Origin: Candidatus Uhrbacteria bacterium
GTDB lineage: Bacteria; Patescibacteriota; Patescibacteriia; UBA9934; GWF2-40-263
Direction of reading: 5' to 3'
DNA length: 64,000 bases
Assembly: GCA_016206085.1 (NCBI GenBank)
Contig: JACQSF010000009.1
Location: forward strand, 9,412 to 73,411
Made by a program: the position numbers and the translations under genes. The notes beneath the pieces were generated by a model. That model saw only the letters and a list, made by a program, of their open reading frames with translations, was not told the DNA's origin and ran no database searches. Below, one piece after another: positions 6,095 to 52,402 of this stretch (position 1 is its first letter; each line of letters opens with the position of its first letter).

Positions 6095-8515
6095 TTATGA
6101 TCTCATTGTAGCACCAAATTCTTTTTCGAGCATCTGACGAATCTTGCGCATCTCTTCATCAACCTCCTGCGCCTCCAGCGTCTTCTCCAAGGAGCGGAAT
6201 GTTATGTGTGCGGCCATGGACTTCTGCCCTTCCTCTATCCCTTTACCGCGGTAGATGTCGAATAGGTCGTATTCGACCAATAAGGCCGACGCCTTCCGCA
6301 CCGCCTTCTCAAGTCCTTCCGCTGGTGTGCGCTCCGCGACGGTAAACGCGATGTCACGCTTGGCGTCCGGATACGGGGGGATTGGCGAAAAGACGCTCGG
6401 CGCTCGCCCAAGTGCCGCCAACATGCTGAGATTAAGCTCCGCTATGGCGACGCGTCGATCGATACCAAGAGCCTGTGCCACATCAGGACGCGCTTCCGCG
6501 AGGACACCGTGCTTTTTTCCGTTAACGAGAATCTCGGCCGCACGACTTGGATGCATCCACGCTCCCGGCTCTTCCATCTCGCGGAAGGTCACGTCAAAAC
6601 CTGCAATGTGAAGAGTCGTCTCAACTTGTCGACGGAGTTCCACGATCGGCGATTCATCGCCTTGGGCGCTATACGCTATTCCGAAATGATACGGCTGTGC
6701 GGGAAGCATGCCGCCTTGTCCATCCTCATCTCCCTTGAGTTTGCCAAAAAATACTCGATCAATCTCGAAGACGGATACAACCGGGAACGCCCGATGATTG
6801 ATTATGACGGTGTCAAACAAATTTGGAACAAGCGACTGACACAAGTACGGACGATCTTCTGCAAGCGGATTGGCGAGCTTGAGATGATCGCCCGGATCAA
6901 ACCCGAGCGTCTGCAGCATCTCAGGAGAAACGAACGCATAGCGGTACACCTCTGTTGCGCCCAGTCCCAGCGACATCGTTTTGCGTACTCTTCGAGCAAA
7001 ATCACGTACAGGATCCTGGACAGGCGGCTTGATCGAAAATGACGGGAGAGACGATTCAATCTGGTCGTATCCCCATATGCGAGCAATCTCTTCGACGACA
7101 TCTTCGACAATCGATACGTCCTTGGTGGCGCGCCAGCTTGGAATCGTTACAGCGAACACTTCTTTCTTCATGCGTACTTCAAATCCCAGTCGCGTCAGAA
7201 TATCCTCCACATCCTTTGCAGGAATCTCTGTTCCGAGCCGCTCATTTACCAAGTCGGCTGTCAACGAGACCGTTATCGATTTTGGTGGTCGTGGATATTC
7301 GTCAATGACCTTCGACGCGACTCGCGCGCCAGGATTCAATTCGCTCATCAGTTCCACCGCACGGCGCAGAGCCAGCTCGCACAAATTCGGATCCAACGAC
7401 TTTTCAAAACGAGCCGACGACTCTGATCGCAATGCGAGCTTCGTCGACGTCTTGCGCACGCTCACGGGATTGAAGTTTGCCGACTCAAATATAATCCTCG
7501 TCGTCTTCTCACTCACGCCACTCCCCTCACCTCCCATCACGCCCGCAATCGCCATCGGCTTTTGTCCGTCGGTGATAAGAAGCATCGACAAATCGAGTTG
7601 ATATGTCTTCTCAGCAAGCGTGGTTATTTTCTCTTTTGGATATGCAGCGCGCACCGCAATCTTATCGCCTAGAATATCCGCATCAAACGCATGCATCGGC
7701 TGGCCAAGCTCAAGCATCACATAATTCGTGACGTCGACCACATTGTTGATTGATCGCACCCCGCAGGCTTCAAGCCGACGCTTTATCCATTCCGGGGACG
7801 CTCCCACGACGATTCCATCCATGGCAACCGCCATGTAGCGCGGACAAGCTTCCTCGTCTTCAACCTTTACGGAAAGACCAATCCCTTTCCCGACGGGAAT
7901 CTTCTTTGGCTCGTAACTCTTAAGTTTCGACTTCGTGAGCGCCGCCACTTCCCGCGCCATGCCGTAATGCCCCATGAGGTCAGGACGGTTCGTGAGCGAT
8001 TTGTGTTCGATATCAAAAATAACATCGTCGAGTCCAAGCACTGTGGCAAGAGGCGTACCGGCTTTTGCGTCGACGTTGCCCAGATCGCGAATCTCGTGAT
8101 CGCCTTCTGTCTGTGAGAGCCCAATCTCGTTGCTTGAACAAATCATGCCTTCACTGTCTTCACCCCGAAGCTTTGTTTTCTTGATCTCCACAAGCTCCCC
8201 TTCCCCATGCCATTTCACCCACGCCCCAGGAAGCGCAACCGCAACCTTCATGCCAGAAGTGACGTTGGTTCCTCCACAGACAATTTGGGTCTTGCGTGTA
8301 CCGACATCGACATGACAGATGCGAAGTTTATCCGCGCTTGGGTGCGCAGAAACCGACTTGATCATTCCCACGACAATCTGCTCAAGCGCCGCCGCCTGAT
8401 CCTTCATACTCTCCACCTCAACGGTCGAAAGCGTAATCTTCTGCGCAAGCTCCGTGTCGGTGAGACTCTTGGGAGTCGCGACAAATTCCTGTAGCCATTT
8501 TTTTGAAATCAACAT
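6095..8515 (-). CDS. pheT: Phenylalanine--tRNA ligase beta subunit
   Basis: The listed ORF (to 8590) begins with a TTG-initiated extension that reads through an intergenic hairpin. The conserved PheT N-terminus MLISKKWLQEF starts at residue 26. Length and domain order match PheT. Start is +/-1 nt because of a 1-nt inconsistency I could not resolve by eye. Confidence 0.93.
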   Translation of the reverse strand: MLISKKWLQEFVATPKSLTDTELAQKITLSTVEVESMKDQAAALEQIVVGMIKSVSAHPSADKLRICHVDVGTRKTQIVCGGTNVTSGMKVAVALPGAWVKWHGEGELVEIKKTKLRGEDSEGMICSSNEIGLSQTEGDHEIRDLGNVDAKAGTPLATVLGLDDVIFDIEHKSLTNRPDLMGHYGMAREVAALTKSKLKSYEPKKIPVGKGIGLSVKVEDEEACPRYMAVAMDGIVVGASPEWIKRRLEACGVRSINNVVDVTNYVMLELGQPMHAFDADILGDKIAVRAAYPKEKITTLAEKTYQLDLSMLLITDGQKPMAIAGVMGGEGSGVSEKTTRIIFESANFNPVSVRKTSTKLALRSESSARFEKSLDPNLCELALRRAVELMSELNPGARVASKVIDEYPRPPKSITVSLTADLVNERLGTEIPAKDVEDILTRLGFEVRMKKEVFAVTIPSWRATKDVSIVEDVVEEIARIWGYDQIESSLPSFSIKPPVQDPVRDFARRVRKTMSLGLGATEVYRYAFVSPEMLQTLGFDPGDHLKLANPLAEDRPYLCQSLVPNLFDTVIINHRAFPVVSVFEIDRVFFGKLKGDEDGQGGMLPAQPYHFGIAYSAQGDESPIVELRRQVETTLHIAGFDVTFREMEEPGAWMHPSRAAEILVNGKKHGVLAEARPDVAQALGIDRRVAIAELNLSMLAALGRAPSVFSPIPPYPDAKRDIAFTVAERTPAEGLEKAVRKASALLVEYDLFDIYRGKGIEEGQKSMAAHITFRSLEKTLEAQEVDEEMRKIRQMLEKEFGATMRS

Positions 8516-11464: not shown

Positions 11465-11492
11465 TATAAAAAAGTGACCTACGAGGGGTCAC
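11465..11492 (-). terminator. Rho-independent terminator at the left edge of the high-GC island
   Basis: Hairpin gtgacc-tacgag-ggtcac overlaps the stop codon and is followed on the minus strand by a T-run (plus strand ataaaaaa). Confidence 0.6.
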
Positions 11493-12526
11493 AGCAGATT
11501 GGCACGTTCGCGGCCAATGGTGCGGAAATCGCGGCCGAGGAGTGCCGAGATGAGCGTGATTTCCGCGCTCACGATCGGTGTCGGGATGCTGGTCAGCTCT
11601 CCGATGCGCTCCCAGCACACGAGACCGGCGGCCGTGTCCTCGGTGAGGTAGCGGTGCTCGAGGACGTTCGGCCCCTTGAACCCGGCCGCGCGGCCGCACG
11701 CGAGGAACTCGAGATCCTGTCGCTCGGGCTCGGCCATGGAGCCGGACTTGGAGAACAACCCGCGCAGTTCGTTCCATGCGAGCCCGCGGCCCTCCACCTC
11801 CGCGAGCAGCGTCATGCGCTCCGCATCCTTGCGCCCGAGGAGCGCGCGCACCCCGGGGGTGACCCCGTGCTCGTACATCCGGAAGTCTGGGTCGAGCTCG
11901 ATGCGGCTCGCGGAGAGCAGGCAGGGCGTGGTGTGGAAGAGCGGGTTCGGGTTCGAGAGCAACACGGACTGGACTGTGCCGCCGAACACCGGGTTCGGGG
12001 TCAGGATCGCGAGCATCTCCGCGAGTTCCGGCACGGACGACGGATCGCCCGAGTAGAGCACCGACGGGGTGAGCACGGTAACGCGCGCGACCTCTGCGTC
12101 GTGCGGGGAGATCCGACACCCGTAAGGGAGGGTATTGGCCTCCACGAGCAGCGGCACCCGCGCCTGCGAGCCGAGCCGCCGGAGCAGGAACAGCGAGCCG
12201 AGGTTGCCCGGGAAGTACAGCACCGCGCGGACGGCATCAACGACGGGCGCGAGCATGTCCGCGACCGCCTTGTGCGCGTCGGCCACCGTGGTGACGACCA
12301 CGAAGTCGACACCTTCCACCTGCGAGAGATCGGCCGCGAACGCGACGAACCCCTCGGCACGCAACATCCCGTAGATCCGAACCCCCTTCCCCGCGGCACG
12401 GATATTGTCGAGGCGGTCGATAAATCCTGGCACTTCCGAGAGCGTGACGCGGTACCCGTTGGAAGACAGATGGGCCGCGATGGTGGTGCCGGCGGCGCCA
12501 GCACCGATGATAAGAATGTGAGGCAT
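11489..12526 (-). CDS. NAD(P)-binding dehydrogenase, opine dehydrogenase / ketopantoate-reductase-like
   Basis: N-terminal Rossmann GxGxxG (MPHILIIGAGAAGTTIAAHL), 345 aa, GC-rich codon usage. Confidence 0.5.
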   Translation of the reverse strand: MPHILIIGAGAAGTTIAAHLSSNGYRVTLSEVPGFIDRLDNIRAAGKGVRIYGMLRAEGFVAFAADLSQVEGVDFVVVTTVADAHKAVADMLAPVVDAVRAVLYFPGNLGSLFLLRRLGSQARVPLLVEANTLPYGCRISPHDAEVARVTVLTPSVLYSGDPSSVPELAEMLAILTPNPVFGGTVQSVLLSNPNPLFHTTPCLLSASRIELDPDFRMYEHGVTPGVRALLGRKDAERMTLLAEVEGRGLAWNELRGLFSKSGSMAEPERQDLEFLACGRAAGFKGPNVLEHRYLTEDTAAGLVCWERIGELTSIPTPIVSAEITLISALLGRDFRTIGRERANLL

Positions 12527-12902
12527 CTACTAACTCCAATCAGCAACGGAACCGTATCCATTTTTTGAATAAATGTCAAGGGAATATGAAAAAACCGCCC
12601 GGGATTAGCCGAGCGGGACGAGGATGGCGCAGATCGCCTGCGCGTCCGGGATCACGGTGCGTCCCGCGCAGTTGGGTCGGATCTTCAGCCCGCGCTCGAC
12701 GAGCACCTTGGCGATGGCGAGCGTGTCCGCCCATACCGTGCATGTTATCTCCATCCAGAACTTCGTCTACCAGCGACGACCAATGCTGTTGAGAATACGA
12801 ATGGGCGGATTCGCTCTGTCCTCAATCGTGCTCGTGGGTGTCGGACTCCTGAATCACTCATTCACTGGATCACGGCGTTTCTCTGGTTCCATCCGACAGT
12901 GA

Positions 12903-13283
12903 AATGTCGACCAAAATTACCAACAGAAATTCGGCGTGTATCCCACATATGCCCGAGCCATTCGGACACTGCCAAAGGAACTCGCGAAGTCACTCACCTA
13001 CGACCAAGGGAAAGAAATGAGTGACCACAAAGCGTTTACATTTTCTACCGGCATGAAGGTATACTTCGCTCATCCAAGCAGTCCATGGGAACGTGGCACA
13101 AACGAAAATACCAACGGACTTATTCGTCAGTATTTTCCAAAGGGCACGGACTTCCGTACAGTCTCAACAAAAGAGATTAAGCGGGTACAGCGTCAGTTGA
13201 ATCAACGACCAAGAAAGACGCTCGGCCACCTCACGCCAGAAGAAACCATTAACAATATCGTTGCGTTAAAAGTTGGAAACTAA
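12903..13283 (+). mobile_element. IS30-family transposase C-terminal fragment (remnant/pseudogene)
   Basis: ...YFAHPSSPWERGTNENTNGLIRQYFPKGTDF...LNQRPRKTLG is the conserved IS30 DDE C-terminus. Only about 126 codons are present, an in-frame stop lies at 12900, and no N-terminal HTH/DDE region or inverted repeats were seen. Its low G+C contrasts with the surrounding high-GC DNA. Confidence 0.75.
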
Positions 13284-13302
13284 GTATCAAAAAACCTCCC
13301 CG

Positions 13303-14376
13303 TTACGAGGAGGTTACGATCCAGAGGACGTCGCCGTCCTGAACCGCGTAGTCGCGGCCGACCGTTTGGAAGGTACCGCGGGCGCGGATGGCCTGTTCGC
13401 CGACCTCGCAGATTTGGTCGAGCGAGAACACCTGCGCCTTCAGAAAGGTGCCGAGGAAGTCCGTGTGGATCATTCCGGCGGCCTCGTGCGCCGTGGTTCC
13501 GCAGCGGATGGGCCACGCACGGGTCACGCCCTTGCCGAACGTGTAGAAGGTGACGAGGCCAAGCGTGTCGTAGCAGCCGCGAACCACCTCGTCGACGGAC
13601 CCGTCGACGCCGAGCGATGTACGTAGCTCCGCGCGCTCCGCCACGTCGTCGATGTCCGAGAGTTCGCGCTCGGCGCGGATGCTGAGCGGAATCGCCGGGT
13701 GGCCGAGTGCCTTCTCCCAGTGCGCGCGGTCGAATGGGCCGTTCTCGCCGACGTTCATGACCACGAGCACGGGCTTGAGCGTGAGGAACTCGTAGACGCG
13801 CAGGCGCTCGAGCTCGTCGGGGGTTAGTCCGGCCTCGCGCGCGGTCTTGCGCTCGTCGCGCATGGCGCGCCAGAGCTTCTCGAGCGCGGCGTGCTTCGCG
13901 ATCGAATCCTTGTCGTTGGTGTTGCGCGCGCGGGATTTCTCCGCGATGCGGTACTTGTTGACGAGTGCGAGGTCGGCCATGACCAGCTCCTCGTCGATGA
14001 TCCGGAGGTCGCGCGACGGGTCGACCGAATCCTCCACGTGCGTCACGTCGCCGTCCTCGAAGGCGCGAACCACGTGCAGGATCATGTCCACGCCGCGCAC
14101 GTGCGCGAGGAACTCGTTGCCGAGCCCCACGCCCTGATGCGCGTTGCGAACCAGCCCCGCGATGTCCACGAACTCGATCTGGCTTGCCATGAGCTCCGCG
14201 CAGCCGGTGGCTCGAGCCAGGCGGTCGAGCCGCTCGTCCGGAATCGTGACGATGGAGACGTTCGGTTCGATCGTGCAGAACGCAAAATTCTCCGCGGGCA
14301 CGTTCCGGCGGGTCAGGGCGTTGAAGAGGGTGGACTTCCCGACGTTCGGGAGTCCGACGATTCCGACTCGAAGCAT
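13303..14376 (-). CDS. ychF: Ribosome-binding ATPase YchF (Obg-family GTPase-like, TGS C-terminal domain)
   Basis: GIVGLPNVGKSTLFNALT P-loop plus the characteristic YchF C-terminus. High-GC codon usage. Confidence 0.9.
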   Translation of the reverse strand: MLRVGIVGLPNVGKSTLFNALTRRNVPAENFAFCTIEPNVSIVTIPDERLDRLARATGCAELMASQIEFVDIAGLVRNAHQGVGLGNEFLAHVRGVDMILHVVRAFEDGDVTHVEDSVDPSRDLRIIDEELVMADLALVNKYRIAEKSRARNTNDKDSIAKHAALEKLWRAMRDERKTAREAGLTPDELERLRVYEFLTLKPVLVVMNVGENGPFDRAHWEKALGHPAIPLSIRAERELSDIDDVAERAELRTSLGVDGSVDEVVRGCYDTLGLVTFYTFGKGVTRAWPIRCGTTAHEAAGMIHTDFLGTFLKAQVFSLDQICEVGEQAIRARGTFQTVGRDYAVQDGDVLWIVTSS

Positions 14377-14406
14377 AGGGATTCTCCAGGAAACCGAACT
14401 GACAGT

Positions 14407-14432
14407 GTAGCCAAACCGCGCGACGTTGGCAA
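14407..14432 (-). promoter_or_regulatory. Putative sigma70-type promoter for ychF (TTGCCA-N17-TACACT)
   Basis: Minus-strand read ttgccaacgtcgcgcggtttggctacact lies about 30 nt upstream of the ychF ATG. GGAG Shine-Dalgarno sits 9 nt upstream of the ATG. Confidence 0.35.
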
Positions 14433-14459
14433 GAAAAAAGCCCGAGCTAGCGCTCAGGC
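14431..14459 (-). terminator. Rho-independent terminator ending the tyrS...GATase operon
   Basis: GC-rich hairpin gcctgagcgctagctcgggc followed by TTTTTT on the minus strand. Overlaps the GATase stop codon. Confidence 0.5.
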
Positions 14460-15104
14460 CGTGATGGCATCGAAGAAAAACCGGCTCGCAAACGCCGCCG
14501 CGGGACCGGGATCCGGGAAGCGGTCGTTGTGGAGCTCGGACGGCGCGAGGCCCGCGCCACGGTAGATGCGCTCCGCGTCCGCGGGGCCGATCTCCGGGTG
14601 GTAGGCCGTCGCGAGGATACGATCCCCGACCGCAAACGCCTCCACTGCGTCACGTGGCGAGTCCGCAAGCAGGCGCGCCCCTGGCGGCAGCCGCACGATG
14701 TGGTTGCTGTGGAACTCAAACTGCACGTAACGGGTGCACAGCGGGAACATTCGATGATCCGCGAGCTGACGGATCTCGTTCCACCCGCGCACGGTCTCGC
14801 CGCGCACCACATCTCCTCCGAGCGCGAGCACAATGAGCTGCGCACCGAGGCAGATGCCCACCAGCATGGGCGCGGCCGGATCCGAGGCGAGCGCGCGGAC
14901 GCGGTCAAATTCCTCCTGGATGAACGGATGTCTAGCCCGATCCTCCTCGTTGGCGGACATGGGCCCGCCGCCGAGCATGAGGACATCAAACGACTCCGGA
15001 ACCGTCTCGCCGAGATAGCGCCGGACCACCCTGGAACCGGGAAGCCAGTTCATGAAGGCCGAGCCGCGTTCCGGGGCGAACTCGCAGACAATGATCCGCC
15101 TCAT
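14454..15104 (-). CDS. Class-I glutamine amidotransferase-like protein (GATase1 / gamma-glutamyl hydrolase-like)
   Basis: Nucleophile-elbow motif GICLGAQL. Start taken at MRRIIVCEF, which overlaps the upstream stop by ATGA. Confidence 0.7.
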   Translation of the reverse strand: MRRIIVCEFAPERGSAFMNWLPGSRVVRRYLGETVPESFDVLMLGGGPMSANEEDRARHPFIQEEFDRVRALASDPAAPMLVGICLGAQLIVLALGGDVVRGETVRGWNEIRQLADHRMFPLCTRYVQFEFHSNHIVRLPPGARLLADSPRDAVEAFAVGDRILATAYHPEIGPADAERIYRGAGLAPSELHNDRFPDPGPAAAFASRFFFDAITA

Positions 15105-16411
15105 GATGCACTCCTTTGTACGATGTTCCACCAAGGCGAGCGACCTGTGAGCCGCTCGTACATCTCGGGATACCCTTCACCCCCGCGCTCGATGGTGAGG
15201 TGTCGGCCACTTCCGGTCGTGCGGATCATCCCATACTCATCCTCCGGATCCGGCACCCGGAGGGCGACGATTTTCTCCCAGTCCGGCTCGGCGCCGAGCC
15301 CCTCGCCCGCGAATGCGACAGACCGGCCGTCCTCGGCCGTCTGAAACGCGCCGTGGATCAGGTGTCGCGCACCCGTGAACCAGTCTGACGCCGGCTGCCA
15401 TCCGTCGCACGGGAGCGAGACAGTGCGGAGCACCGACGCGGCGTGCTGGTCGTAGCAGCGACCGATCGCTGTCGGGAAGGTCCCGCCGACGAGGCTTCGC
15501 ACCGGCTGGTCAACGGTGGCCTCGACCGCCAGACGCTCGAGCTCGAGTGACCGACGGATCCCGCCGAGCTTCTGGATCTTCATGTTGAGCCAGACGCCCG
15601 AGCGCGCGAGAACGCGTGCGTCAGACTCGTTGAGGAACGACTCGTCCGCAACCACATGCAGGCCGAATGCATTCCGTGCGATTCGGTGCGCGTACACGAT
15701 TCCCTCGGCGCCGAAGCGCTCGCCAATAGGCTGCTCGCTGAACGCCCAGGTCTCGATCCATGGGATGTCCCGCGCCCACGCGATTACACCCTCCCACTCC
15801 TCCGGTCCGAGCGAGCCGTTGAAGTCCGTGGAAAAGGTGCCCTGCGTCTCGTGTGCGACCTCGGCGGCCGCGTGCAGGACGGTGCTGGTATATTCCATGT
15901 CCGTGCCGCACTTAAACTTGGGCGTGCGCCCGACGGCGAGGATGCGCCCGACGGCCGCGCGGATCGCGGGCTCATTGGCGAGGATACCGACGCTCTCGAG
16001 CACACACCCGCTTCCCGGCCGATGGCCGTACAGGTTGCAGACGTTGGTACCGGTCATGCGCGCGGCGGCTGCATCGAGTGCCATGTTGATGGCCGCCTGC
16101 GTCGCGTATACACCGTCACGCTCGCGCTCGACCCACGCCTCGTCGAGTAGCGTCTCGCGATCCCCGATGCGGCGGCCAACGAGCAGCGCGGAGTGGAGCG
16201 CGAAAATGATGTCCCACGCGTCGTAGTGCGAGAACGGGAAATCGATCGACGCTTCGCCGACGACGGTGAACGGTGCACCCGCGTCCGGCTCCACCGTGAG
16301 GCGGAGCAACACGCGCGGCAGGTCACGTAACGTCCCGAACCCGAGCCGAAACGGCTGGGAAAGCGGGATCGCGAGCAGCAGGATGTCTCTGCTAATGATC
16401 GTAGCGTTCAT
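15101..16411 (-). CDS. Enolase-superfamily enzyme (mandelate racemase / muconate lactonizing enzyme; dipeptide-epimerase-like)
   Basis: 436 aa. N-terminal capping domain, KxK-type motif MKIQKLGGI, barrel-domain acidic residues. Strong AAGGAGGG Shine-Dalgarno upstream. Confidence 0.65.
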   Translation of the reverse strand: MNATIISRDILLLAIPLSQPFRLGFGTLRDLPRVLLRLTVEPDAGAPFTVVGEASIDFPFSHYDAWDIIFALHSALLVGRRIGDRETLLDEAWVERERDGVYATQAAINMALDAAAARMTGTNVCNLYGHRPGSGCVLESVGILANEPAIRAAVGRILAVGRTPKFKCGTDMEYTSTVLHAAAEVAHETQGTFSTDFNGSLGPEEWEGVIAWARDIPWIETWAFSEQPIGERFGAEGIVYAHRIARNAFGLHVVADESFLNESDARVLARSGVWLNMKIQKLGGIRRSLELERLAVEATVDQPVRSLVGGTFPTAIGRCYDQHAASVLRTVSLPCDGWQPASDWFTGARHLIHGAFQTAEDGRSVAFAGEGLGAEPDWEKIVALRVPDPEDEYGMIRTTGSGRHLTIERGGEGYPEMYERLTGRSPWWNIVQRSAS

Positions 16412-16443
16412 CGATCCCTCCTTGATATCTGGAAATATAAAGA

Positions 16444-16489
16444 GCCACTCCGATCTTGGGACGTCTTGAACGTCCTGTCAAGGAGTGGC
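16444..16489 (-). other. Intercistronic stem-loop (8-bp stem gccactcc/ggagtggc enclosing a nested hairpin) between the 293-aa gene and the MR/MLE gene
   Basis: Seen directly. Lies 10 nt after the upstream stop and before the Shine-Dalgarno of the next cistron. No T-tract follows. Confidence 0.3.
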
Positions 16490-16498
16490 CGTTGACTT

Positions 16499-17380
16499 CT
16501 ATGCGAGGATCTGATCGATGAGTGCTTGGACGCGCACGAACACGTCCGTCCCGTGCTGAGGCTGCGATCCGGTGAGCCGGTCCCAGAGACGGAGAATACC
16601 ACCCAAGTGACGCACCAACCCACCCATGGTCTTGTCGGCACCCCAACTAGGCAAAGCTTGCTCGATCTTAGCACGAACATCCTCACCGGGCTTGAACAAG
16701 ATCCGTCGCTCGTCGGCGACCGCGATGTACGGGGACGCCCGCATGCGTTTCGGATCGAGCGTCCGTCCCGCGACCACGTAGGCGAAGGACATGTGCTCGT
16801 CGCAGCGCACGCGGAACTCCCGGTCGTACAGCCGTTCGTCGAAGCCAAGCTCCGACTCGCCCGCCTGGAGGAGCCAGCCGAGCTTCAGACGCACGCTGTG
16901 CGTCTCGCGGTACCAGAGCATGTCCGCGAGCTCGCGGCGCACGTACTCGGCCTTGTCGGTGTGCACGCGCGCGAGGAGCGCCTCGTACTCGTCCGAGCGG
17001 TCGAAGTCACTCGAGAGGCGGACGTCTACCGGGATGTCGGCGGCCCTCGCGATCTTGCCGATCACGTCCCGGTACTCCGCCGCCATGGCCGCGACCACTT
17101 CCGGCGTGCAGAAGGGGTTAGTCAGCGCGTGCGTGTCTGCGATGTGGTGGTAGATGCGGTCGAGCCCCATCAGCCTGCGAAGTCGCTCGGCTCCAAGGAT
17201 GAAGATGAGGATGTCAAACGGAAGCCCGATCGACGGCGAACGCGGGGTGGTCAGACCTGTCCCGTAGTAAACCGATCCGAAGGGTTTCGTGAGAAACGCC
17301 GGATCGATCATGGCGAGCGATGGTTCCGAGTGGAACAGGGGCTCGTTCTGCAAAAAAATCCTGAGTTGATCTTCAGTCAT
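16499..17380 (-). CDS. Hypothetical protein (293 aa) of the island operon
   Basis: Long GC-rich ORF, translationally coupled (ATGA) to the upstream GCS2 gene. No recognisable motif. Confidence 0.5.
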   Translation of the reverse strand: MTEDQLRIFLQNEPLFHSEPSLAMIDPAFLTKPFGSVYYGTGLTTPRSPSIGLPFDILIFILGAERLRRLMGLDRIYHHIADTHALTNPFCTPEVVAAMAAEYRDVIGKIARAADIPVDVRLSSDFDRSDEYEALLARVHTDKAEYVRRELADMLWYRETHSVRLKLGWLLQAGESELGFDERLYDREFRVRCDEHMSFAYVVAGRTLDPKRMRASPYIAVADERRILFKPGEDVRAKIEQALPSWGADKTMGGLVRHLGGILRLWDRLTGSQPQHGTDVFVRVQALIDQILA

Positions 17381-18801
17381 ATGTCTTCGTCCTTGTAGGT
17401 GAGGAAATACTGCCGAAACAAATCACGATCGATCGGTTTATTGCCGATGCTACGCTCTCCCCACATCTGTCGCAAGCTCCGAAACGCGATGTCCGACGGG
17501 CTGCCGAACACGCTGCGGTCTTTCCAAATCTCGCGAACCTGGTCGATCTCCTCGGACGAGGCACCGAGCTCACACATACCATTCTCGGCGAGCTGGGTCT
17601 GCCGTTTCATGACGTCGCGCGCCGACAGACGGACAGGTTCGCCTTCCGTCATCTGCCAGAGCTTGCCGTCCATGCCGAGCGTCATCGCAGACCACCGATT
17701 GTCATGCAGGAGCGGCATGGGCAGGAGCGGGATATCCGCGGCTCGCGCACCAATGACGTGTCCGACGGCGAAGGCGACCATCGCATAGTCCTCGAGCGAG
17801 GTCGGCTGTATGGAAAGCGGCCGAAACTCGAGTACGATCTGCGGATCGGATTCCCCGATGCGAAGAAATTTAATCCGCGCGTCGCGCCAGTACAAGCCGG
17901 TCGCGAGCGGGAACGCCGCCTCCGGGATGTGCAGGATCGACGGCTGGTCGTGGAGATCCTCGAAGTACGCCTCGAGGGTGTGGAAATAGCCCGTCGGGAG
18001 CCCCGTGCGTCCACTCAGGCCACGCGACACCTCCCCAGGAGTACGAATGTCATGACTGAACTCCCACACGATCCCGCGGATGTCCGCGTAACCACTGTCC
18101 ACACCGTCAACGAAGCGCGCGTTTGCACCCATCGCCACGGCGTATGGCCCGGAGACCAACGCCAGATTCAGGAGCTGGAGCGCCTCCTCGGAGGAGTGAC
18201 AATCAAGGTTGTACTGCACGCTCGACATCATCCCCAGTCCGGCTGCGTGGTCGCAACGAATGAGTCCCCCGTCCCGACCGATGAAGGTCGGGAGTCCGTC
18301 TCGACGGTGGCGGCGGTGGAAGTCGGGGACGAGGACGTAGCGATCCTTCGCGCGCTTGGAGCGGCCGCGTTGGTCTGCGTGGACGAGCGGATCGGATCCG
18401 AGGCGCACGATGGAAGCTCCAACCGCGCCAACCCGACTCCGGAGGAGCGAGGTTTCGGAACGGATGGCATTGCGCAACTGACCAAACCCGCCCGCGACCG
18501 TGATGTCGATTGGAGGGGTCATGATCTCAATCTGGGCGGCACCAAGCTCGTATTGGTAGGACGGATACTTCTGAACTAACGCGTTGCGCGTGTCCTCGTC
18601 GAGCGGCTCACCCTCCCGTGTCATACAGGAGAACTCGAGCTCGACGCCGACGCGTCTACCGGTCTTGTTGGATCCGGTGTCGACCGTGCGGTCGAGAATA
18701 GACTCCGCCGTCTCACGGAAGAGCGCACGCATCTCTGGGAAGAACGGATAGAGCGCATCAAAGCGCTCCGCACGACTGGTGGAAAATCGCCGGAACATCA
18801 T
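17377..18801 (-). CDS. Carboxylate-amine ligase, glutamate--cysteine ligase family 2 (GCS2/YbdK-like)
   Basis: Real start MMFRRF... at 18801, with ATGA overlap of the tyrS stop. N-terminal GVELEFS motif is typical of GCS2. The 140-aa Arg-rich N-terminal extension in the listed 614-aa ORF is a GC-rich out-of-frame read through tyrS. Confidence 0.65.
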   Translation of the reverse strand: MMFRRFSTSRAERFDALYPFFPEMRALFRETAESILDRTVDTGSNKTGRRVGVELEFSCMTREGEPLDEDTRNALVQKYPSYQYELGAAQIEIMTPPIDITVAGGFGQLRNAIRSETSLLRSRVGAVGASIVRLGSDPLVHADQRGRSKRAKDRYVLVPDFHRRHRRDGLPTFIGRDGGLIRCDHAAGLGMMSSVQYNLDCHSSEEALQLLNLALVSGPYAVAMGANARFVDGVDSGYADIRGIVWEFSHDIRTPGEVSRGLSGRTGLPTGYFHTLEAYFEDLHDQPSILHIPEAAFPLATGLYWRDARIKFLRIGESDPQIVLEFRPLSIQPTSLEDYAMVAFAVGHVIGARAADIPLLPMPLLHDNRWSAMTLGMDGKLWQMTEGEPVRLSARDVMKRQTQLAENGMCELGASSEEIDQVREIWKDRSVFGSPSDIAFRSLRQMWGERSIGNKPIDRDLFRQYFLTYKDEDI

Positions 18802-20084
18802 GCACCCTCCTGAGCGTTGATAATGAAACGGACGAACGTGCGCTTGCCGACGCGCACGTCCTGCTGCGTCCCGGGAGCCGGAACGGGATCGGACTGCTTC
18901 ATCACCTGATCCGCACCCGCGGTCACCAGGTGGACGCCGCCGCCGTCGAGCAGTCGGCGCGCGTCGGAGTTGCTCGCGGCCTGCGTGATGCCGAGCGCCC
19001 GCAGGAGGGTGATCCAGGTGGCTGCCTTGCCCGCGGGAACCTGCACGACCGGAAGGTCGGCAGGCACTTCCTTCTCGACGATGCGCCGACGGAAGTCCTC
19101 GTCGGCCGCGTCGGCCGCCGCGAGACCGTTGAGATCCGCGACGACGACTCGCGCGAGTAATCGCTTCGCGTTGCGCGGATGTACAGAGCCGTTCACGATG
19201 GCCGCGGCGAGTTCGTCCCACTGAGCGTCGCGCATGTCTGTGAGCAACTTGAAGTACGACTCCACCTGCGCGTCCGGGATGGACATAATCTTGCCGAACA
19301 TGTCCACCGGGTCGGCGGTGACTGGGATGTAGTTGCCTAGCGACTTCGACATCTTGTGCCCGTCACCCGTGGTGCCTAGCAGAATGTCGGTTGTGATCGC
19401 GGACTCCGGCGATAATCCCTCGTTCTCCATCACACGCTCGGTGGTGTAAAAGTTGAGAAGTTGATCGTCACCGCCGAGCTCGATCTCACTCTTGAGTTCG
19501 ACCGAGTCGATGGCCATGAGGAGCGCGTAGAGCATCTCGGCGACCGTGACGGACTCACGCTTGCGGAAGTCGTCGCGTTGCATCGCCATCGAGACGTTGA
19601 TGCCGCGACACACGGTAAAAAACCGCGCCAGCTTGAACACATCGAGCCACTCGCTGTTGAACCGAACCTCGGTGCGCTTCAGGTCGAGGATCTTCCCCGC
19701 CTGCGCTGCGAAGAGCTCCGCGTTGGCGCGAATCTCGGCGGACGAGAGCACAGGACGGGTCGACACGCGACCGGTCGGATCCCCTACCTGGGCGGTGAAG
19801 TCGCCGATGAGTAGCACAACGTGGTGGCCCATGTTCTGCAGGCGGCGCAGCACGAACAGCGGAACCGCATGGCCGAGATGAATGTCCTTGGCCGTGGCGT
19901 CGATGCCGTACTTCACGCGTAGCCCGCGTCCTTCCTTGCGGGCGATCACGAGGGTTGCGCGTAGACGATCCTCGCCGACGATGTGCTTAGCGCGCTCCTT
20001 AAGCAGCGCGAGCTGTTCGTCCGGCGTCAATCCGGAAAGGTTCGGATGCTCGAGCAACGAGCGTTCCAGTGCCTGAATGTCCAT
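18798..20084 (-). CDS. tyrS: Tyrosine--tRNA ligase
   Basis: HIGH-like GHAVPL and KMSKS motifs, C-terminal S4-like domain. Start likely MDIQALERS (20084). G+C drops sharply immediately upstream of the start. Confidence 0.9.
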   Translation of the reverse strand: MDIQALERSLLEHPNLSGLTPDEQLALLKERAKHIVGEDRLRATLVIARKEGRGLRVKYGIDATAKDIHLGHAVPLFVLRRLQNMGHHVVLLIGDFTAQVGDPTGRVSTRPVLSSAEIRANAELFAAQAGKILDLKRTEVRFNSEWLDVFKLARFFTVCRGINVSMAMQRDDFRKRESVTVAEMLYALLMAIDSVELKSEIELGGDDQLLNFYTTERVMENEGLSPESAITTDILLGTTGDGHKMSKSLGNYIPVTADPVDMFGKIMSIPDAQVESYFKLLTDMRDAQWDELAAAIVNGSVHPRNAKRLLARVVVADLNGLAAADAADEDFRRRIVEKEVPADLPVVQVPAGKAATWITLLRALGITQAASNSDARRLLDGGGVHLVTAGADQVMKQSDPVPAPGTQQDVRVGKRTFVRFIINAQEGA

Positions 20085-20249
20085 GTTGTTTTTCCTTTTC
20101 ATAAAAAACAAATTGTGAAAGAACGACAAAAAACGCTATCAATTTCCTCAAAAAGTGTCAACAAAGTAAATCGAGACCGCTGAAATATGCTCTCCATACC
20201 TGATTCGGAATGTTCCTCAATTTTTTTCTGATCGGTTGATACGGACATA

Positions 20250-21662
20250 TTATTCTGGCTTCATTGTGCCAACTTCTGGGTACTTGGCAATGAGTTCGAC
20301 AAATTCATTCATAATCTCGTCCATCCGCTCCTGTGTCTTTGCCTCGAACACGAGCACGAGCTTGGGGAGGTTTGACGAGGCCCGGACAAGGCCCCAGCCG
20401 TCATCAAACTCAACGCGCGCCCCATTTACATCTATGACTTTCTCTGAACCGTACTTCTCTTTCACATCCTGTACGAGCTTATCGACAATTCCATACTTCA
20501 CTTCATCCGCACAATGTGCCTCGTAGGTCGGAGACGTGGCATACGTACTCACTTCGTCATGAAGCTCCGCAACTGATTTCTCCTGCGAGGTCACATACTC
20601 AAGGAATTTCATCGAAGCAAACAGACCATCGTCATAGCCAAAATAGTCTCGACGAATAAAAATATGTCCACTCCGTTCACCAGCGACAGGAGCATCCACC
20701 TCTCGGGACTTTGCTTTGATATGCGAGTGCCCTGTTTTCCAGATCACGGGTTTCCCTCCATGAGCGATCACGTCATCCGAAATCGCACGTGTCGCTTTTA
20801 CGTCATATACAATGGAAGCTCCGGGCTCCTTGGCGAGCGCAAGACGTGCAAGAAAGATTAAAATCTTGTCCGGATACATGGTTCGACCACGTTCATCAAC
20901 CACTCCAAGGCGATCCCCATCGGCGTCGTAACCCAATCCACAATCCGCTCCAACCTCCATCACCTTTGCTTCCAATGCTTTTTGAAATCCAACAGAACTG
21001 GGGTTGGGTTCATGGTTTGGAAATGTCGCATCGGGTGTTGTGTTTTGTTCTATAACTTCGCACCCAAACGCTTTGAGCGCCGGAACGTTAATCGGCCCAG
21101 CAGCCCCGTTACCCGTATTCACCACAACTTTCAAAGGTCGATGGAGCGTTGCGCGACTCGTGAGATCTTTGATATATGCCTGAACGATCTCACCCATCGA
21201 CACGTCTTCACAAGACCCCTCACCGCTCAAAAAATCTTCACGCACAATCCGATTATAGAGTTCGTCGAACCCCTGAAGCGTACTGGACTTATCCATTCCA
21301 AGTTTTAGACCAAACCAACCGTTGGGATTGTGCGAGGCCGTACCCATACAAATTCCTTTCACATCTAAGTGGTACTGCGCCCAATAGGCAACCGGGACCG
21401 TCACCTGACCCACATTCTTTACGTGAACTCCCGTAGAAACCAAACCTTCAATGGCTGCCTCCGCCAGTCCTTTCGAGTAAGAACGGTTGTCATACCCGAC
21501 CACACACTGGTTCACACCCACCTCGATCAAGGTCGATCCAAAGGCCTTTGCGATCAATTTTACGGAGGTTTCGTTTAACTCCTCAGGACCAACTTGTCCT
21601 CGAATGTCATACTCCCGAAACATGGTTCGTTTTAGCTCTGGCATATTTTTGACGGATATCAA
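20250..21662 (-). CDS. Phosphomannomutase / phosphoglucomutase family
   Basis: Active-site GTASHNP phosphoserine loop. Four-domain length (470 aa). Confidence 0.85.
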   Translation of the reverse strand: MISVKNMPELKRTMFREYDIRGQVGPEELNETSVKLIAKAFGSTLIEVGVNQCVVGYDNRSYSKGLAEAAIEGLVSTGVHVKNVGQVTVPVAYWAQYHLDVKGICMGTASHNPNGWFGLKLGMDKSSTLQGFDELYNRIVREDFLSGEGSCEDVSMGEIVQAYIKDLTSRATLHRPLKVVVNTGNGAAGPINVPALKAFGCEVIEQNTTPDATFPNHEPNPSSVGFQKALEAKVMEVGADCGLGYDADGDRLGVVDERGRTMYPDKILIFLARLALAKEPGASIVYDVKATRAISDDVIAHGGKPVIWKTGHSHIKAKSREVDAPVAGERSGHIFIRRDYFGYDDGLFASMKFLEYVTSQEKSVAELHDEVSTYATSPTYEAHCADEVKYGIVDKLVQDVKEKYGSEKVIDVNGARVEFDDGWGLVRASSNLPKLVLVFEAKTQERMDEIMNEFVELIAKYPEVGTMKPE

Positions 21663-44822: not shown

Positions 44823-45090
44823 GACATGCTCCGTTGAGCTGGTCGTTGATGGGTTGGCGCCAGAATGGTGAACCTTCCCGGGCGACGCGCCAGATCTTGC
44901 GCGTCGACCCGTGCGGGTCAACCAAGCATGGTCATCACCCCACTTCCTGCCCCTCTCTCCAGGAACTTTTGTCTATTGATCGTCTAGTCCGACATGACCC
45001 CGGCGGGGTCTTTGGCAAACGGCTTCTGTTACGGGTGTCTGCCACAGGCCAGTCGAGAGAGTGATGTGGATGTCGATCTATCTTTACAAC

Positions 45091-46522: not shown

Positions 46523-46584
46523 ACGTCGATCATCATGCCTCATTTTGCAAAAAAGAAGAAGACCCCCATTTGGGGATCTTCTTG

Positions 46585-51775: not shown

Positions 51776-52402
51776 ATGTCCAGGTCCCTCCTGGTTTCTC
51801 TCCTGCCCCTCGCCTTCGTGGTGGGGTGCGGGAACAGCACCGGCGGCACCTGCGCCGGCGCCGAGTGCGACGCCACCGACGTCGACTCCGACTTCTCCGC
51901 GATGTTCCACAACGTCGCCCCCTACGGTTGGGTAGGTGACCACCTGGTGTGGCCGTACGACGAGAACTCGATGGGAATCGAGCCTCTGTGTTCCTCGGTC
52001 AACGAGTGCAACGCCGAACTCTCGGAGTTCGGGACCAGGATGGTCGACATCGACGGTGACACCTTCATGTGTGTCCCTCAGCTCCTCATCGTGGGCGAGG
52101 TCGACGACGGCACGACCGTCGACGCGACTTCTCCATGGCTAGGTGAGGGCATGTGTGGCCTCGCACCTGAGGGCGAAGACGATGGCTGGGAGGTACGTAC
52201 CGACATCCACGACCTCAACAGCGACGGGGATGACGAGGTGATCATTCACATCGCTTCCTGGACGGCGATCGTCACGGGCTCCGAATTCTTCTACGAGGAG
52301 GACGAGTACCTCCTCGAAGGCTGGATCTCGGAAGACCTCAGCCAGGTCTACTTCCACCGCGTCGTCGAGACAGGCGAGACAGAGCGGACACTCGACCTGT
52401 AG
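51776..52402 (+). CDS. Acidic lipoprotein, high-GC (GC3-rich) codon usage
   Basis: Lipobox LAFVVGCG, Asp/Glu-rich, Cys-containing. Strongly GC3-biased codons, unlike the flanks. Confidence 0.5.
   Translation: MSRSLLVSLLPLAFVVGCGNSTGGTCAGAECDATDVDSDFSAMFHNVAPYGWVGDHLVWPYDENSMGIEPLCSSVNECNAELSEFGTRMVDIDGDTFMCVPQLLIVGEVDDGTTVDATSPWLGEGMCGLAPEGEDDGWEVRTDIHDLNSDGDDEVIIHIASWTAIVTGSEFFYEEDEYLLEGWISEDLSQVYFHRVVETGETERTLDL

Follow-up and report, generated by a model that had tools for sequence, protein, structure and literature searches.

A GC-rich tyrS operon in a Candidatus Uhrbacteria genome and its possible origin by ancient replacement from a GC-richer relative

An amelioration model for compositionally atypical, horizontally acquired DNA was reportedly put forward by Lawrence and Ochman in 1997. 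GC-biased gene conversion in bacteria is said to have been described by Lassalle et al. in 2015. The genes of aminoacyl-tRNA synthetases are known to undergo orthologous (xenologous) replacement in the course of their evolution, and host-to-epibiont transfers are known from Actinobacteria to Saccharibacteria. In aquifer Patescibacteria, most of the detected transfers are received from other Patescibacteria, translation genes are enriched among them, and old transfers are undetectable after their composition has been homogenised (Gios et al., 2025, mSystems; PMC12455944).

The block described here lies in a 64,000-nucleotide stretch of DNA (the window) from a Candidatus Uhrbacteria metagenome-assembled genome (MAG). 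As in ameliorating acquired DNA, its GC, GC3 and dinucleotides are atypical, and its synonymous sites drift toward the composition of the recipient. Unlike typical acquired DNA, it is a conserved, probably essential native operon in its ancestral slot rather than accessory material, it lacks an integrase, a tRNA site and flanking repeats, and it is still GC-rich after about 18% nucleotide divergence among its descendants. As in xenologous synthetase replacement, a canonical tyrS of atypical composition stands in the place of the native gene, but the anomaly is common to eight linked genes and reaches beyond the synthetase. A GC-rich patch in a CPR recipient also recalls host-to-epibiont transfers, from which this locus differs in its recipient, an Uhrbacteria member, in its CPR-type genes and in failing the donor test. 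Gene conversion would raise GC locally at recombining loci without a foreign donor; however, the present substitutions of the island lower its GC, and most CPR genomes do not show the effect in this operon. Lastly, the locus has in common with the cases of Gios et al. (2025) a groundwater-type CPR bacterium and a block of translation genes that stems from CPR, although the event is old but compositionally visible and has the look of a replacement, not of a gain.

Composition and gene content of the block

The preliminary description reported a GC-rich island with gene-precise borders at the tyrS ATG and at a rho-independent terminator, and windowed GC and GC3 across the stretch confirm both the step and the codon bias. 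The GC content is 0.632 in 11465-20090 and 0.503 over the remaining window (about 63% versus 50%). Windows of 1 kb show an increase from 0.53 to 0.69 at 11.5 kb and a decrease from 0.63 to 0.48 at 20.0-20.5 kb. In 100-nt windows, GC declines across the tyrS ATG at 20084 (0.54 to 0.38) and just beyond the opine-dehydrogenase stop and the terminator at 11474-11492 (0.53 to 0.39). Flanks of about 50% GC were likewise found, with values of 0.54 for rseP and 0.49 for PGM, as were the spurious long ORFs, which overlap throughout the non-coding strand of the block at lengths of 100-364 aa. GC3 is 0.75-0.89 in the seven island genes and 0.37-0.68 in the other ORFs checked, two further GC-rich ORFs excepted. 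At fourfold sites, the island has a GC content of 0.824 and the backbone one of 0.558, a distance of about 3.4 SD given the backbone per-gene SD of 0.078. The dinucleotide signature distance between island and backbone is 141, whereas equal-sized backbone chunks average 46 and reach 102 at most. Additionally, GC1 and GC2 are elevated in the island, and the spacers inside the block have a GC content of 0.49 and 0.56, versus 0.35-0.39 for the outer spacers. The GC-rich stretch itself is genuine, and its GC-rich spacers, GC1 and GC2, distinct dinucleotides and a GC-rich gene remnant argue for a foreign-looking block rather than for codon selection.

The genes, terminator and IS30 fragment given in the preliminary description are all present. 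The operon, on the minus strand, begins with tyrS (18798..20084), which encodes a bacterial-type tyrosyl-tRNA synthetase of 428 aa (TIGR00234, 250 bits versus a cut-off of 114; GC3 0.81) with intact HLGH at 69 and KMSKS at 244. No second tyrS was found within the 64 kb of the window. The next genes encode a GCS2-type carboxylate-amine ligase-like protein of 474 aa (17377..18801; PF04107; GC3 0.75; start as called in the relative L001), a 293-aa protein (16499..17380), an enolase-superfamily protein of 436 aa with an MR_MLE C-terminal domain (15101..16411; PF13378; GC3 0.81), a class-I glutamine-amidotransferase-like (GATase1-like) protein of 216 aa (14454..15104; PF00117; GC3 0.81; start as called in an identical Logan contig) and YchF (13303..14376; 357 aa; TIGR00092, 344 bits versus a cut-off of 279; GC3 0.89), which is 68% identical to the product of the syntenic L004 gene. 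The last gene encodes an opine/octopine-dehydrogenase-like protein of 345 aa (11489..12526; PF02317, E 3e-27; GC3 0.87). The rho-independent terminator that follows it (11474..11492, minus strand; stem GTGACC...GGTCAC, then TTTTTT) forms the left compositional border, where GC declines to 0.39 inside about 50 nt.

The right compositional border is the tyrS leader (20085..20249, minus strand). The preliminary description was correct that it is low in GC (35%), but it is more than host-like sequence. A putative promoter has a TTGACAC -35 box at 20155-20161, a conserved box, GTCGTTCTTTCACAATT, lies at 20111-20127 (GTCGnTCTTTCACAAyT across relatives), and an AAAGGA ribosome-binding site is located at 20093-20098. 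The leader boxes also occur upstream of tyrS in the relatives L002, L003 and L009 and more loosely in L004, and L003 retains them despite a different upstream gene, gyrA.

The fold of the 293-aa protein is that of a class Ic aminoacyl-tRNA synthetase (TyrRS/TrpRS). Compared with the class Ic synthetases and the cyclodipeptide synthases, the protein lacks the HIGH motif and possesses only a KASP-like stretch at the position expected for the KMSKS of class Ic synthetases. No sequence-level match was found in Pfam/NCBIfam or among solved structures. Members of the family were found almost exclusively in CPR and DPANN, and across CPR the gene adjoins tyrS. Because it is encoded beside a canonical tyrS, the protein is not the housekeeping enzyme.

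The site between ychF and the opine-dehydrogenase-like gene holds an IS30-family transposase remnant of 47-48% GC (12936..13283, plus strand; NF033563, 141 bits). It is the C-terminal third of the protein and spans only profile positions 179-267 of 267. A possible second fragment resembling an IS256 C-terminus (12770..12900, plus strand; low GC) is uncertain, its match (NF033543, E 0.007, 15 bits) being far under the cut-off. In relatives, this site is occupied by an intact HMGL/isopropylmalate-synthase (IPMS)-like gene, of which a 38-codon remnant survives in the window (12623..12736, minus strand), with a terminator-like hairpin directly 3' of it (12595..12616, minus strand; an 8-bp stem, 7 of its pairs GC, and a T-run after it). 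By tblastn, the remnant is 76% identical to residues 72-109 of the intact gene in a contig from Hainich (L027, 4574-5797), 51% to L033 and 42% to L004. This dead gene is still GC-rich, at 0.69 over 12601-12735 containing it. No further IS30 copy is present elsewhere in the window, and the fragment is not at the corresponding site in L002, L027 or L033. As the preliminary description had proposed, the IS30 element came in after the GC-rich state.

Synteny and affinity of the operon

An Uhrbacteria member of 47% GC possesses the same operon at normal GC, in the same slot after PGM-LemA-M48-ClpC. Specifically, the order ClpC-M48-LemA-PGM-tyrS...opDH is conserved in L004-L007 with GC3 of 0.45-0.57, and L033 has the identical eight-gene order with GC3 of about 0.5. 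Between the low-GC relative and the window, flank proteins such as ClpC (61%), M48 (69%), LemA (70%), PD40 (58%) and DsbA (53%) range in identity from 39 to 70%, excluding the non-orthologous PGM (32%), and operon proteins from 49 to 68%, a similar divergence.

The GC-rich operon itself recurs between flanks of about 50% GC in at least two relatives from other datasets. L002, which spans both ends, consists of a PGM fragment, the operon and an rseP fragment, and its nucleotide identity to the window is comparable in the operon (82%) and in rseP (87%). In the Hainich contigs L003, L027 and L028, the operon has GC3 of 0.74-0.90 and the flanks 0.40-0.68; L003 comprises 8 kb of low-GC flank and the operon start, and L027 the operon end and 4 kb of low-GC flank. 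The tyrS leader lies within L001, and the right junction is 100% identical in a separate Logan assembly. Because the GC-rich operon beside low-GC flanks recurs in L002, L003 and L027, the junctions are biological, as had been claimed. A chimera of populations of about 50% and 63% GC, formed during assembly or binning, might be suspected from the fact that the contig belongs to a MAG and from a Logan contig that ends exactly at the PGM stop (20249/20250), maybe at a graph branch. It is nevertheless extremely improbable, given that other runs and other assemblers yielded the same arrangement in relatives (L001, L002, L003, L027) and the presence within the block of both a host-GC IS fragment and the GC-rich pseudogene remnant.

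It had also been suggested that the block, with tyrS and ychF, reached a Saccharibacteria-like epibiont from its GC-rich actinobacterial host. The high GC and GC3, the gene-precise step and the low-GC flanks would agree with such a donor, and a distant homologue of the 293-aa protein (51%) is encoded in a 72%-GC contig with radical-SAM and two P450 genes. However, the source organism is Candidatus Uhrbacteria and not Saccharibacteria, and database-wide searches with TyrRS, the 293-aa protein and the opine-dehydrogenase-like protein contradict the suggestion, since their close relatives are restricted to CPR, mainly Uhrbacteria, and no match from outside CPR exceeds 43% identity. Outside the GC-rich clade, the nearest TyrRS is that of Ca. 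Uhrbacteria RIFCSPHIGHO2_02_FULL_47_44 (67%; 47% GC), compared with 56% for Kerfeldbacteria and just 43% for Streptomyces, the only and best named actinobacterial match; in a neighbour-joining tree, the TyrRS of the window clade is nested among those of Uhrbacteria. Opine-dehydrogenase-like relatives of at least 42% identity comprise the window clade and Uhrbacteria-type proteins, and all other matches, named Clostridia and Bacillales included, are at most 34% identical. Low-GC Uhrbacteria share synteny with the window over the whole eight-gene order and the right flank. Moreover, the choice between C- and G-ending codons in the island correlates with CPR sets (r 0.78-0.86) but not with the 72%-GC contig (r = 0.12), unlike which the island prefers CTC over CTG and CGC over CGG. 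An actinobacterial donor is thus very improbable. Based on CPR affinity, shared gene order and codon choice, tyrS and ychF are the lineage's own gene type and not imports from another phylum, and the block is the conserved tyrS operon of this lineage in its usual chromosomal slot. Other GC-rich genes of the window, such as that of an M23 peptidase, are likewise of Uhrbacteria type.

A further explanation is that the operon is mobile and entered each lineage independently from a shared GC-rich donor pool, instead of through one ancestral acquisition. The operon lies between PGM and rseP in the window and L002 and between gyrA and NusB-RNase III in the Hainich contigs, nucleotide homology between the copies runs from about 20 nt before the tyrS ATG to a few nt past the opDH stop, and the tree of the three copies is close to a star, with fourfold p-distances of 0.32-0.37. 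Yet the flanks also differ among low-GC Uhrbacteria with a normal-GC operon (L004 versus L033), so rearrangement suffices to explain these differences, and the window and L002 have both neighbours in common, at similar nucleotide identities in rseP and operon. No att-like or other flanking repeats and no integrase were found, nor any plasmid or phage match except for a conserved ychF segment. Independent entry therefore seems rather improbable.

Direction of GC change and origin of the GC-rich state

The direction of change was estimated from 1082 fourfold sites in three taxa with a simple model of two states on a star tree. A non-stationary process is favoured over a stationary one (2dlnL = 16.0, p = 6e-5), also with gamma rate variation (2dlnL 7.3, p = 0.007). 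The ancestral GC4 is 0.93 (bootstrap 0.88-0.96), present values are 0.80-0.84, and the equilibrium is 0.66 (0.40-0.76), a range that includes the backbone value of 0.558. The block is losing GC.

One way to reach such an ancestor without a foreign donor is vertical inheritance with a locus-specific process that made the operon very GC-rich on the stem branch of the subclade; candidates are GC-biased gene conversion at a recombination hot spot and selection on mRNA or codon composition. This would accommodate the retained slot and conserved leader, the equal divergence of operon and flank proteins, the match between island and backbone in C-versus-G codon preference, the lack of a GC-rich donor among the loci examined, and the GC elevation at the same loci elsewhere, namely in L009 and, for the serS-adjacent M23 gene, in the window, L034 and L035. 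However, all three lineages now lose GC toward a backbone-compatible equilibrium, so the process must have stopped everywhere. Furthermore, operon-minus-flank GC3 is centred on zero across about 58 other operon-bearing loci, indicating that the elevation is not intrinsic to the operon; the mid-operon ychF of L009 is without elevation; and the GC-elevated internal spacers and pseudogene remnant speak against codon-level selection. Enrichment in place appears unlikely. In Uhrbacteria CG_4_9_50_9, the operon is GC-elevated with a mid-operon ychF at host GC3 (0.54), a mosaic that fits patchwise recombination.

The favoured reading, held with about even confidence, is an ancient replacement from a GC-rich, unsampled CPR relative, followed by amelioration. 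Transfers among Patescibacteria, with translation genes enriched, support the exchange of such blocks (PMC12455944). GC-richer Uhrbacteria are indicated by MAG names in the taxonomy that end in FULL_60 and FULL_63, and serS has a GC4 of 0.71 in a relative with an 83%-identical SerS versus 0.49 in the window. Several observations count against replacement. Extrapolating from the loci seen here, the ancestral GC4 of 0.88-0.96 implies a donor of about 65-70% GC, which exceeds 63%, the top value in Uhrbacteria MAG names. Among the Logan/ENA relatives, 20 GTDB loci and 60 metagenome loci, no genome or contig with the operon was GC-rich throughout; uniform GC reached 0.56-0.59 at most. The exact ancestral slot and the conserved AT-rich leader demand a very tidy swap, and the GC elevation of the L009 operon and of the M23 gene in three genomes could point to a locus-intrinsic cause. 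The operon proteins are also no more diverged than the flanks from the low-GC relative, so there is as yet no positive phylogenetic discordance.

Under replacement, the operon of tyrS, the GCS2-like gene, the TyrRS-fold paralogue, the enolase-superfamily gene, the GATase1-like gene, ychF, the lost IPMS/HMGL-like gene and the opine-dehydrogenase-like gene would have occupied its ancestral slot until one Uhrbacteria subclade exchanged its resident copy for the ortholog of a relative with far higher GC, or derived it from that ortholog; the relative would most likely be another CPR or Uhrbacteria lineage. This subclade would comprise the present MAG and at least two relatives from other datasets, and the swap, possibly by homologous replacement, would be older than the split of the sampled lineages. 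The mutational regime of the recipient would then have driven a slow loss of GC, and in the lineage of the window alone, IS30-type debris would finally have removed the IPMS/HMGL-like gene. Because the apparent donor lies inside the same candidate phylum, protein phylogeny would barely reveal such an event.

Composition, borders and gene content of the island

The GC-rich tyrS operon at positions 11465-20090 of the window is a genuine compositional island. Its GC content is 63.2%, compared with 50.3% in the remainder of the window, and the 1 kb GC profile rises at 11.5 kb, falls at 20.0-20.5 kb and dips at 12.5-13.3 kb. The seven intact genes all lie on the minus strand and have a GC at third codon positions (GC3) of 0.75-0.89, whereas the other ORFs checked range from 0.37 to 0.68, two further GC-rich ORFs excepted. 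GC1 and GC2 are also elevated in the island genes. GC at fourfold sites (GC4) is 0.824 in the island and 0.558 in the backbone (per-gene SD in the backbone, 0.078), and the dinucleotide signature distance of the island is 141, while the maximum among equal-sized backbone chunks is 102. Windowed GC, GC3, GC4 and the dinucleotide signature therefore all set this stretch apart, in line with the raised GC and GC3 that the preliminary description had reported from inspection. The gene-precise borders described there were recovered as well, with a GC step at the tyrS ATG (20084) and at the opine-DH terminator (11474-11492). The spacers immediately outside these two points fall to 0.35-0.39 GC, in contrast to 0.49 and 0.56 for internal spacers. 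Long spurious ORFs, also remarked on previously, are indeed abundant and crowd the strand opposite the island genes.

Family profile searches confirmed the gene list. The first gene is tyrS (start 20084, minus strand; TIGR00234, 250.6 bits against a cut-off of 113.8), whose product carries HLGH at residue 69 and KMSKS at residue 244. Also on the minus strand are the operon genes for YchF (TIGR00092, 344.2 bits; cut-off 279.2), for a GCS2-like ligase, for a protein of 293 aa that matched no family, and for MR_MLE, GATase1-like and Octopine_DH-like proteins. The AT-rich tyrS leader contains a -35-like TTGACAC at 20155-20161 and the box GTCGTTCTTTCACAATT at 20111-20127 (minus strand). The TTGACAC and GTCGnTCTTTCACAAyT boxes are conserved 5' of tyrS in several Uhrbacteria irrespective of which gene precedes it, even where this is gyrA (20111-20161 on the minus strand of the window; 134-254 in the close relative L002; 7935-8019 in the Hainich-type contig L003; about 7100-7227 in the Uhrbacteria locus L009). 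Rfam detected neither a T-box nor another leader RNA, its sole hits in the window being three tRNAs at 33-34 kb. The product of the flanking pheS had no match in an exact look-up.

By composition alone, the block resembles a classical integrative genomic island (GC 0.63 vs. 0.50, GC4 0.82 vs. 0.56, dinucleotide distance 141 vs. 102). No integrase or recombinase is encoded in the island, which holds transposase fragments only, a repeat search found no att-like or flanking direct repeats at its borders, and the nearest tRNAs are at 33.3-34.2 kb. Nor is the content accessory and absent from relatives, since a 47%-GC member of the Uhrbacteria has the same operon in the same slot.

Conservation of the operon and affinities of its products

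In the 47%-GC Uhrbacteria loci L004-L007, the gene order is ClpC-M48-LemA-PGM-tyrS-GCS2-293aa-MR_MLE-GATase-ychF-(HMGL-like, 157 aa)-opine DH. The right flank of the window follows the L004-type order gene for gene up to RadA; this LemA-M48-ClpC-...-RadA synteny is common to the window and L004-L006, and a PGM gene lies 5' of tyrS in L004, L002 and the window. Compared with their L004 counterparts, the flank proteins of the window are 61% (ClpC), 69% (M48), 70% (LemA), 58% (PD40) and 53% (DsbA) identical, and the seven operon proteins 49-68%. The L004 operon has a GC3 of 0.45-0.57, as do its flanks, and the same eight-gene order occurs at a GC3 of about 0.5 among other neighbors in a further normal-GC relative, L033. 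Because the order is shared with L004-L007 and L033 and the flank is syntenic with L004, the operon is ancestral to the Uhrbacteria and in its ancestral slot in the window, only its composition being unusual. Such a syntenic position is that expected of a xenologous replacement.

The unusual composition recurs in relatives. The Logan assembly of SRR12113385 includes a contig 100% identical to window positions 14315-20249, which crosses the AT-rich leader to the PGM stop codon. The ends of this contig fall exactly at the PGM stop codon (20249) and inside ychF (14315), and they may be strain-variation branch points. L002 (SRR22387810) consists of a PGM fragment, an operon with 82% nucleotide identity to that of the window and an rseP fragment; the operon has a GC3 of 0.82-0.93, and GC is about 50% at the ends of L002. 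In the Hainich-type contigs L003, L027 and L028 (Hain_H43 contigs and a sister ENA assembly), the operon is bordered by gyrA on the tyrS side and by NusB-RNase III on the opine-DH side, and its GC3 is 0.74-0.90, compared with 0.40-0.68 in the flanks. The GC anomaly is common to a clade and is not an assembly artefact. An assembly chimera, in which the sharp borders would be misjoins, is thus improbable in the extreme, since the GC-rich operon stands beside lower-GC flanks again in L002, L003, L027 and L028; the earlier view that the junctions are biological holds. More widely, the operon is conserved across the CPR in GTDB and metagenome loci, and the difference between operon and flank GC3 is centered on zero, with a range of -0.19 to +0.14, among 20 GTDB loci and 38 longer metagenome loci. 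The only other GC-elevated operon is that of Uhrbacteria CG_4_9_14_3_um_filter_50_9 (L009, the same locus as L042), whose GC3 is 0.62-0.81, with a value of 0.54 for the mid-operon ychF.

The affinities of the encoded proteins bear on the proposed donor. The 293-aa and opine-DH-like proteins are identical to NCBI proteins of a Candidatus Uhrbacteria bacterium MAG (HY626_01565, MBI4256727.1). In a database-wide search, the island TyrRS had five relatives at 79-100% identity, followed by Ca. Uhrbacteria RIFCSPHIGHO2_02_FULL_47_44 (67%), Kerfeldbacteria (56%) and Microgenomates (42%). The sole named actinobacterial TyrRS among the matches listed is from Streptomyces, with 43% identity. In a neighbor-joining tree, the window TyrRS clade is nested among Uhrbacteria sequences. 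For the opine-DH-like protein, relatives of at least 42% identity belong only to the window clade and the Uhrbacteria type, and the rest have at most 34%. The comparison with the backbone is limited, as the flank genes are common only to the window and L004. Codon choice among GC-ending codons (CTC over CTG, CGC over CGG, CCG over CCC and GCG over GCC) is the same in the island, the backbone and other CPR sets. The preference for C versus G at third positions correlates between the island and CPR gene sets with r of 0.78-0.86, compared with 0.12 for a 72%-GC, P450-bearing contig, the one proxy used for actinobacterial-type usage. The preliminary description had suggested, as a speculation, that a GC-rich actinobacterial host passed the operon to a Saccharibacteria-like epibiont. 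Because the closest homologues of the TyrRS, 293-aa and opine-DH-like proteins are from the Uhrbacteria and CPR, and the TyrRS clade nests among Uhrbacteria, an outcome that the description itself had named as refuting, this part of its interpretation is refuted and such a donor is highly improbable, although its claims of biological junctions and a late insertion sequence stand.

Direction of the GC change and origin of the block

The history of the GC content was examined in seven aligned genes of the window, L002 and the Hainich organism, at 1082 fourfold sites whose codon family is conserved. GC4 is 0.82, 0.84 and 0.80, respectively, and pairwise p-distances are 0.32-0.37. Parsimony polarization gave about four times as many GC-to-AT as AT-to-GC changes, but it was dropped as stand-alone evidence because, by a back-of-envelope estimate, stationary GC-rich sequence would give a similar skew at such divergence. 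In its place, a two-state model was fitted by likelihood to the tree of the three taxa, both with gamma-distributed rates and without them, and the estimates were bootstrapped. The non-stationary model was preferred over the stationary one (2dlnL = 16.0; with gamma 7.3, p = 0.007), and the stationary fit under gamma led to absurd parameter values. The ancestral GC4 was estimated at 0.93 (bootstrap 0.88-0.96) and the equilibrium GC4 at 0.66 (0.40-0.76; at least 0.80 in none of 400 replicates), an interval that includes the backbone value of 0.558. Given the non-stationary fit, an ancestral GC4 above the present one and an equilibrium compatible with the backbone, the block is decaying from a still GC-richer state under a host-compatible regime, and its high GC is a relic that is not being maintained. 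Codon selection is argued against by the GC-raised internal spacers, the raised GC1 and GC2 and the 0.69 GC of a dead HMGL/IPMS-like remnant.

The most economical account, with about an even chance of being correct, is an old orthologous replacement followed by amelioration. The resident tyrS operon would have been replaced by the orthologous copy of a much GC-richer relative, and the block would since have been ameliorating toward the composition of the recipient. In its support, the proteins have CPR/Uhrbacteria affinities, the block looks foreign in signature throughout, even in its spacers, and its GC decay was measured; the mosaic operon of L009 and a GC-rich M23 peptidase gene elsewhere in the window also fit. 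A GC-driving process that acted in situ and has now ceased is an unlikely alternative. Independent imports of a mobile operon, which would accommodate the gyrA and NusB-RNase III neighbors in the Hainich-type contigs, are a little less probable again; in plasmid and phage collections, the only matches were short ones within the ychF G-domain, which is conserved. Replacement, for its part, would need to have been very tidy, since the conserved AT-rich leader was retained.

Relatives of higher GC do exist in the Uhrbacteria, as indicated by MAGs known from their names only (FULL_60 and FULL_63) and by the serS-M23 locus L034. Its SerS is 83% identical to that encoded at window positions 45254-46543, while serS GC4 is 0.71 vs. 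0.49, with saturated synonymous divergence (p 0.69). Backbone GC therefore differs strongly between fairly close Uhrbacteria. L034 was also considered as a backbone yardstick for L002, but it is suggestive only, as a link between the two as one organism is not demonstrable. Exchange between Patescibacteria, enriched in translation genes, has been described in aquifer MAGs (PMC12455944). No uniformly GC-rich contig or genome with the operon, as expected of a donor, was present among about 80 loci from GTDB species genomes and JGI metagenome contigs. Three candidate contigs, examined as sources of individual GARP-rich homologues, were rejected: P0010 (1.5 kb, with a tyrS GC3 of only 0.66), P0142 (uniformly 57% GC) and P0155 (72% GC but with an unrelated radical-SAM/P450 context). 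A donor of the composition that the ancestral GC4 estimate calls for would exceed in GC every Uhrbacteria MAG name encountered.

Later events have left traces within and beside the block. In relatives, ychF and the opine-DH gene are separated by an HMGL/isopropylmalate-synthase-like gene that is intact. In the window, only codons 72-109 (38 codons) remain at 12623-12736, 76% identical to the Hainich gene and with 0.69 GC. Adjoining this remnant is a C-terminal IS30 transposase fragment of host GC (profile positions 179-267 of 267); no inverted repeats stood out, and the fragment is itself a remnant. Just upstream of it, a doubtful IS256-like C-terminal fragment (12770-12900, plus strand; E 0.007) is also of host GC, and the pair suggests nested IS debris. 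Because a host-GC IS fragment lies beside a gene remnant that is still GC-rich, the IS arrived after the GC-rich state, as had been supposed. The PGM/PMM gene of the window (20250-21662, minus strand), of host GC, shares only 32% identity with its positional counterpart in L004, and the PGM fragment at the start of L002 is of the L004 type. On these grounds, the window PGM seems to be a non-orthologous replacement, swapped in this lineage too.

Other GC-rich loci and the TyrRS-fold protein

The M23 peptidase gene (42963-44921, minus strand; 652 aa) has a GC3 of 0.78 among low-GC neighbors, and its homologues are from Uhrbacteria or Patescibacteria. In two further Uhrbacteria, the M23 gene at the syntenic position beside serS likewise has a raised GC3, namely in L034 (0.88 vs. 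0.62-0.65) and L035 (0.69 vs. 0.42). A third GC-rich ORF (51776-52402, plus strand; 208 aa, GC3 0.84) matched no family; its product is acidic and carries a lipoprotein-type signal (VVGCGN). At the equivalent position, L035 has another gene, different from this one but also acidic and lipoprotein-like, with a GC3 of 0.78. The window ORF is convergent on the 3' end of a giant gene of host GC, a single ORF of 3321 aa (52495-62460, minus strand). In its C-terminal part, the giant gene shares 41% identity with the end of one of 3189 aa in L035, another member of the Uhrbacteria.

The 293-aa protein (16499-17380, minus strand) has the Rossmann-type catalytic fold of TyrRS/TrpRS, as in the class Ic aminoacyl-tRNA synthetases. 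This was recognized by fold comparison alone; the protein had no PF00579, Pfam or NCBIfam hit, and a sequence-profile search of its family against the PDB gave no match. The class Ic signature motifs HIGH and KMSKS are both missing. The GTGLTTP stretch that follows strand 1, the HIGH position as placed by reading the alignment against the fold, lacks a His, and only RPKASPY occurs near the expected KMSKS position. Stretches of the ADxHAxxN and RPKASPY types are invariant in the family. The protein did not show the combination of CDPS-type fold and family hit expected of a cyclodipeptide synthase.

The family has 149 detectable members, and all organism-named hits are CPR. In GTDB it occurs in Uhrbacteria, Kerfeldbacteria, Kaiserbacteria, Berkelbacteria, Gottesmanbacteria, Saccharibacteria and DPANN archaea, and also at three loci in MAGs labeled Gammaproteobacteria or Pseudomonadales. 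A canonical tyrS adjoins the family gene in most CPR loci examined (L008-L026 and L036-L095), and many loci also include the GCS2-like ligase, the enolase-superfamily enzyme (MR_MLE) and the GATase1-like protein. In the Nanobdellati (DPANN) locus L022, the family gene is accompanied by the ligase and the enolase-superfamily enzyme, and tyrS is about 5 kb away. A homologue with 51% identity lies between radical-SAM and FtsX/MacB transporter genes on L030, an 8316-bp contig of 72% GC (JGI 3300065440). Two cytochrome P450 genes are located just past this stretch, in a layout like that of a biosynthetic gene cluster in a GC-rich, non-CPR genome. A role of the 293-aa protein in an amino-acid or aminoacyl-tRNA-dependent small-molecule pathway is a reasonable guess but no more than that. 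A literature search on this operon, the CPR TyrRS paralogue and GC islands in Uhrbacteria found nothing specific.

GC mosaicism affects the same orthologous loci in several Uhrbacteria: the tyrS operon, strongly in the window clade and to a milder degree in CG_4_9_50_9, and the serS-adjacent M23 gene in three genomes. Rather than a one-off import, it could, speculatively, be the footprint of habitual exchange of alleles or operons between members of one CPR class that differ widely in GC, or of GC-biased recombination specific to these loci. As part of the same doubtful proposal, the operon may encode an uncharacterized, possibly tyrosyl-tRNA-dependent pathway around the TyrRS-fold paralogue.

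In conclusion, on the favored account the event belongs to a kind already known, gene replacement within the Patescibacteria that is still visible in base composition. The capture of core translation genes by an epibiont from its host was a tempting but wrong story, and its removal is a warning that donors are not to be named from GC content alone. More modestly, an ultra-small CPR bacterium appears to have exchanged even its tyrS and ychF, probably the only copies it has, within a block of eight genes, the other party being a relative that differed greatly in base composition. The block has kept the compositional mark of this exchange through considerable divergence, and the mark can serve to date and follow the flow of genes in uncultured Uhrbacteria. 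In addition, the linkage of tyrS to a TyrRS-fold paralogue across the CPR, in a family that extends to the DPANN, provides a testable lead to a pathway in these reduced organisms.
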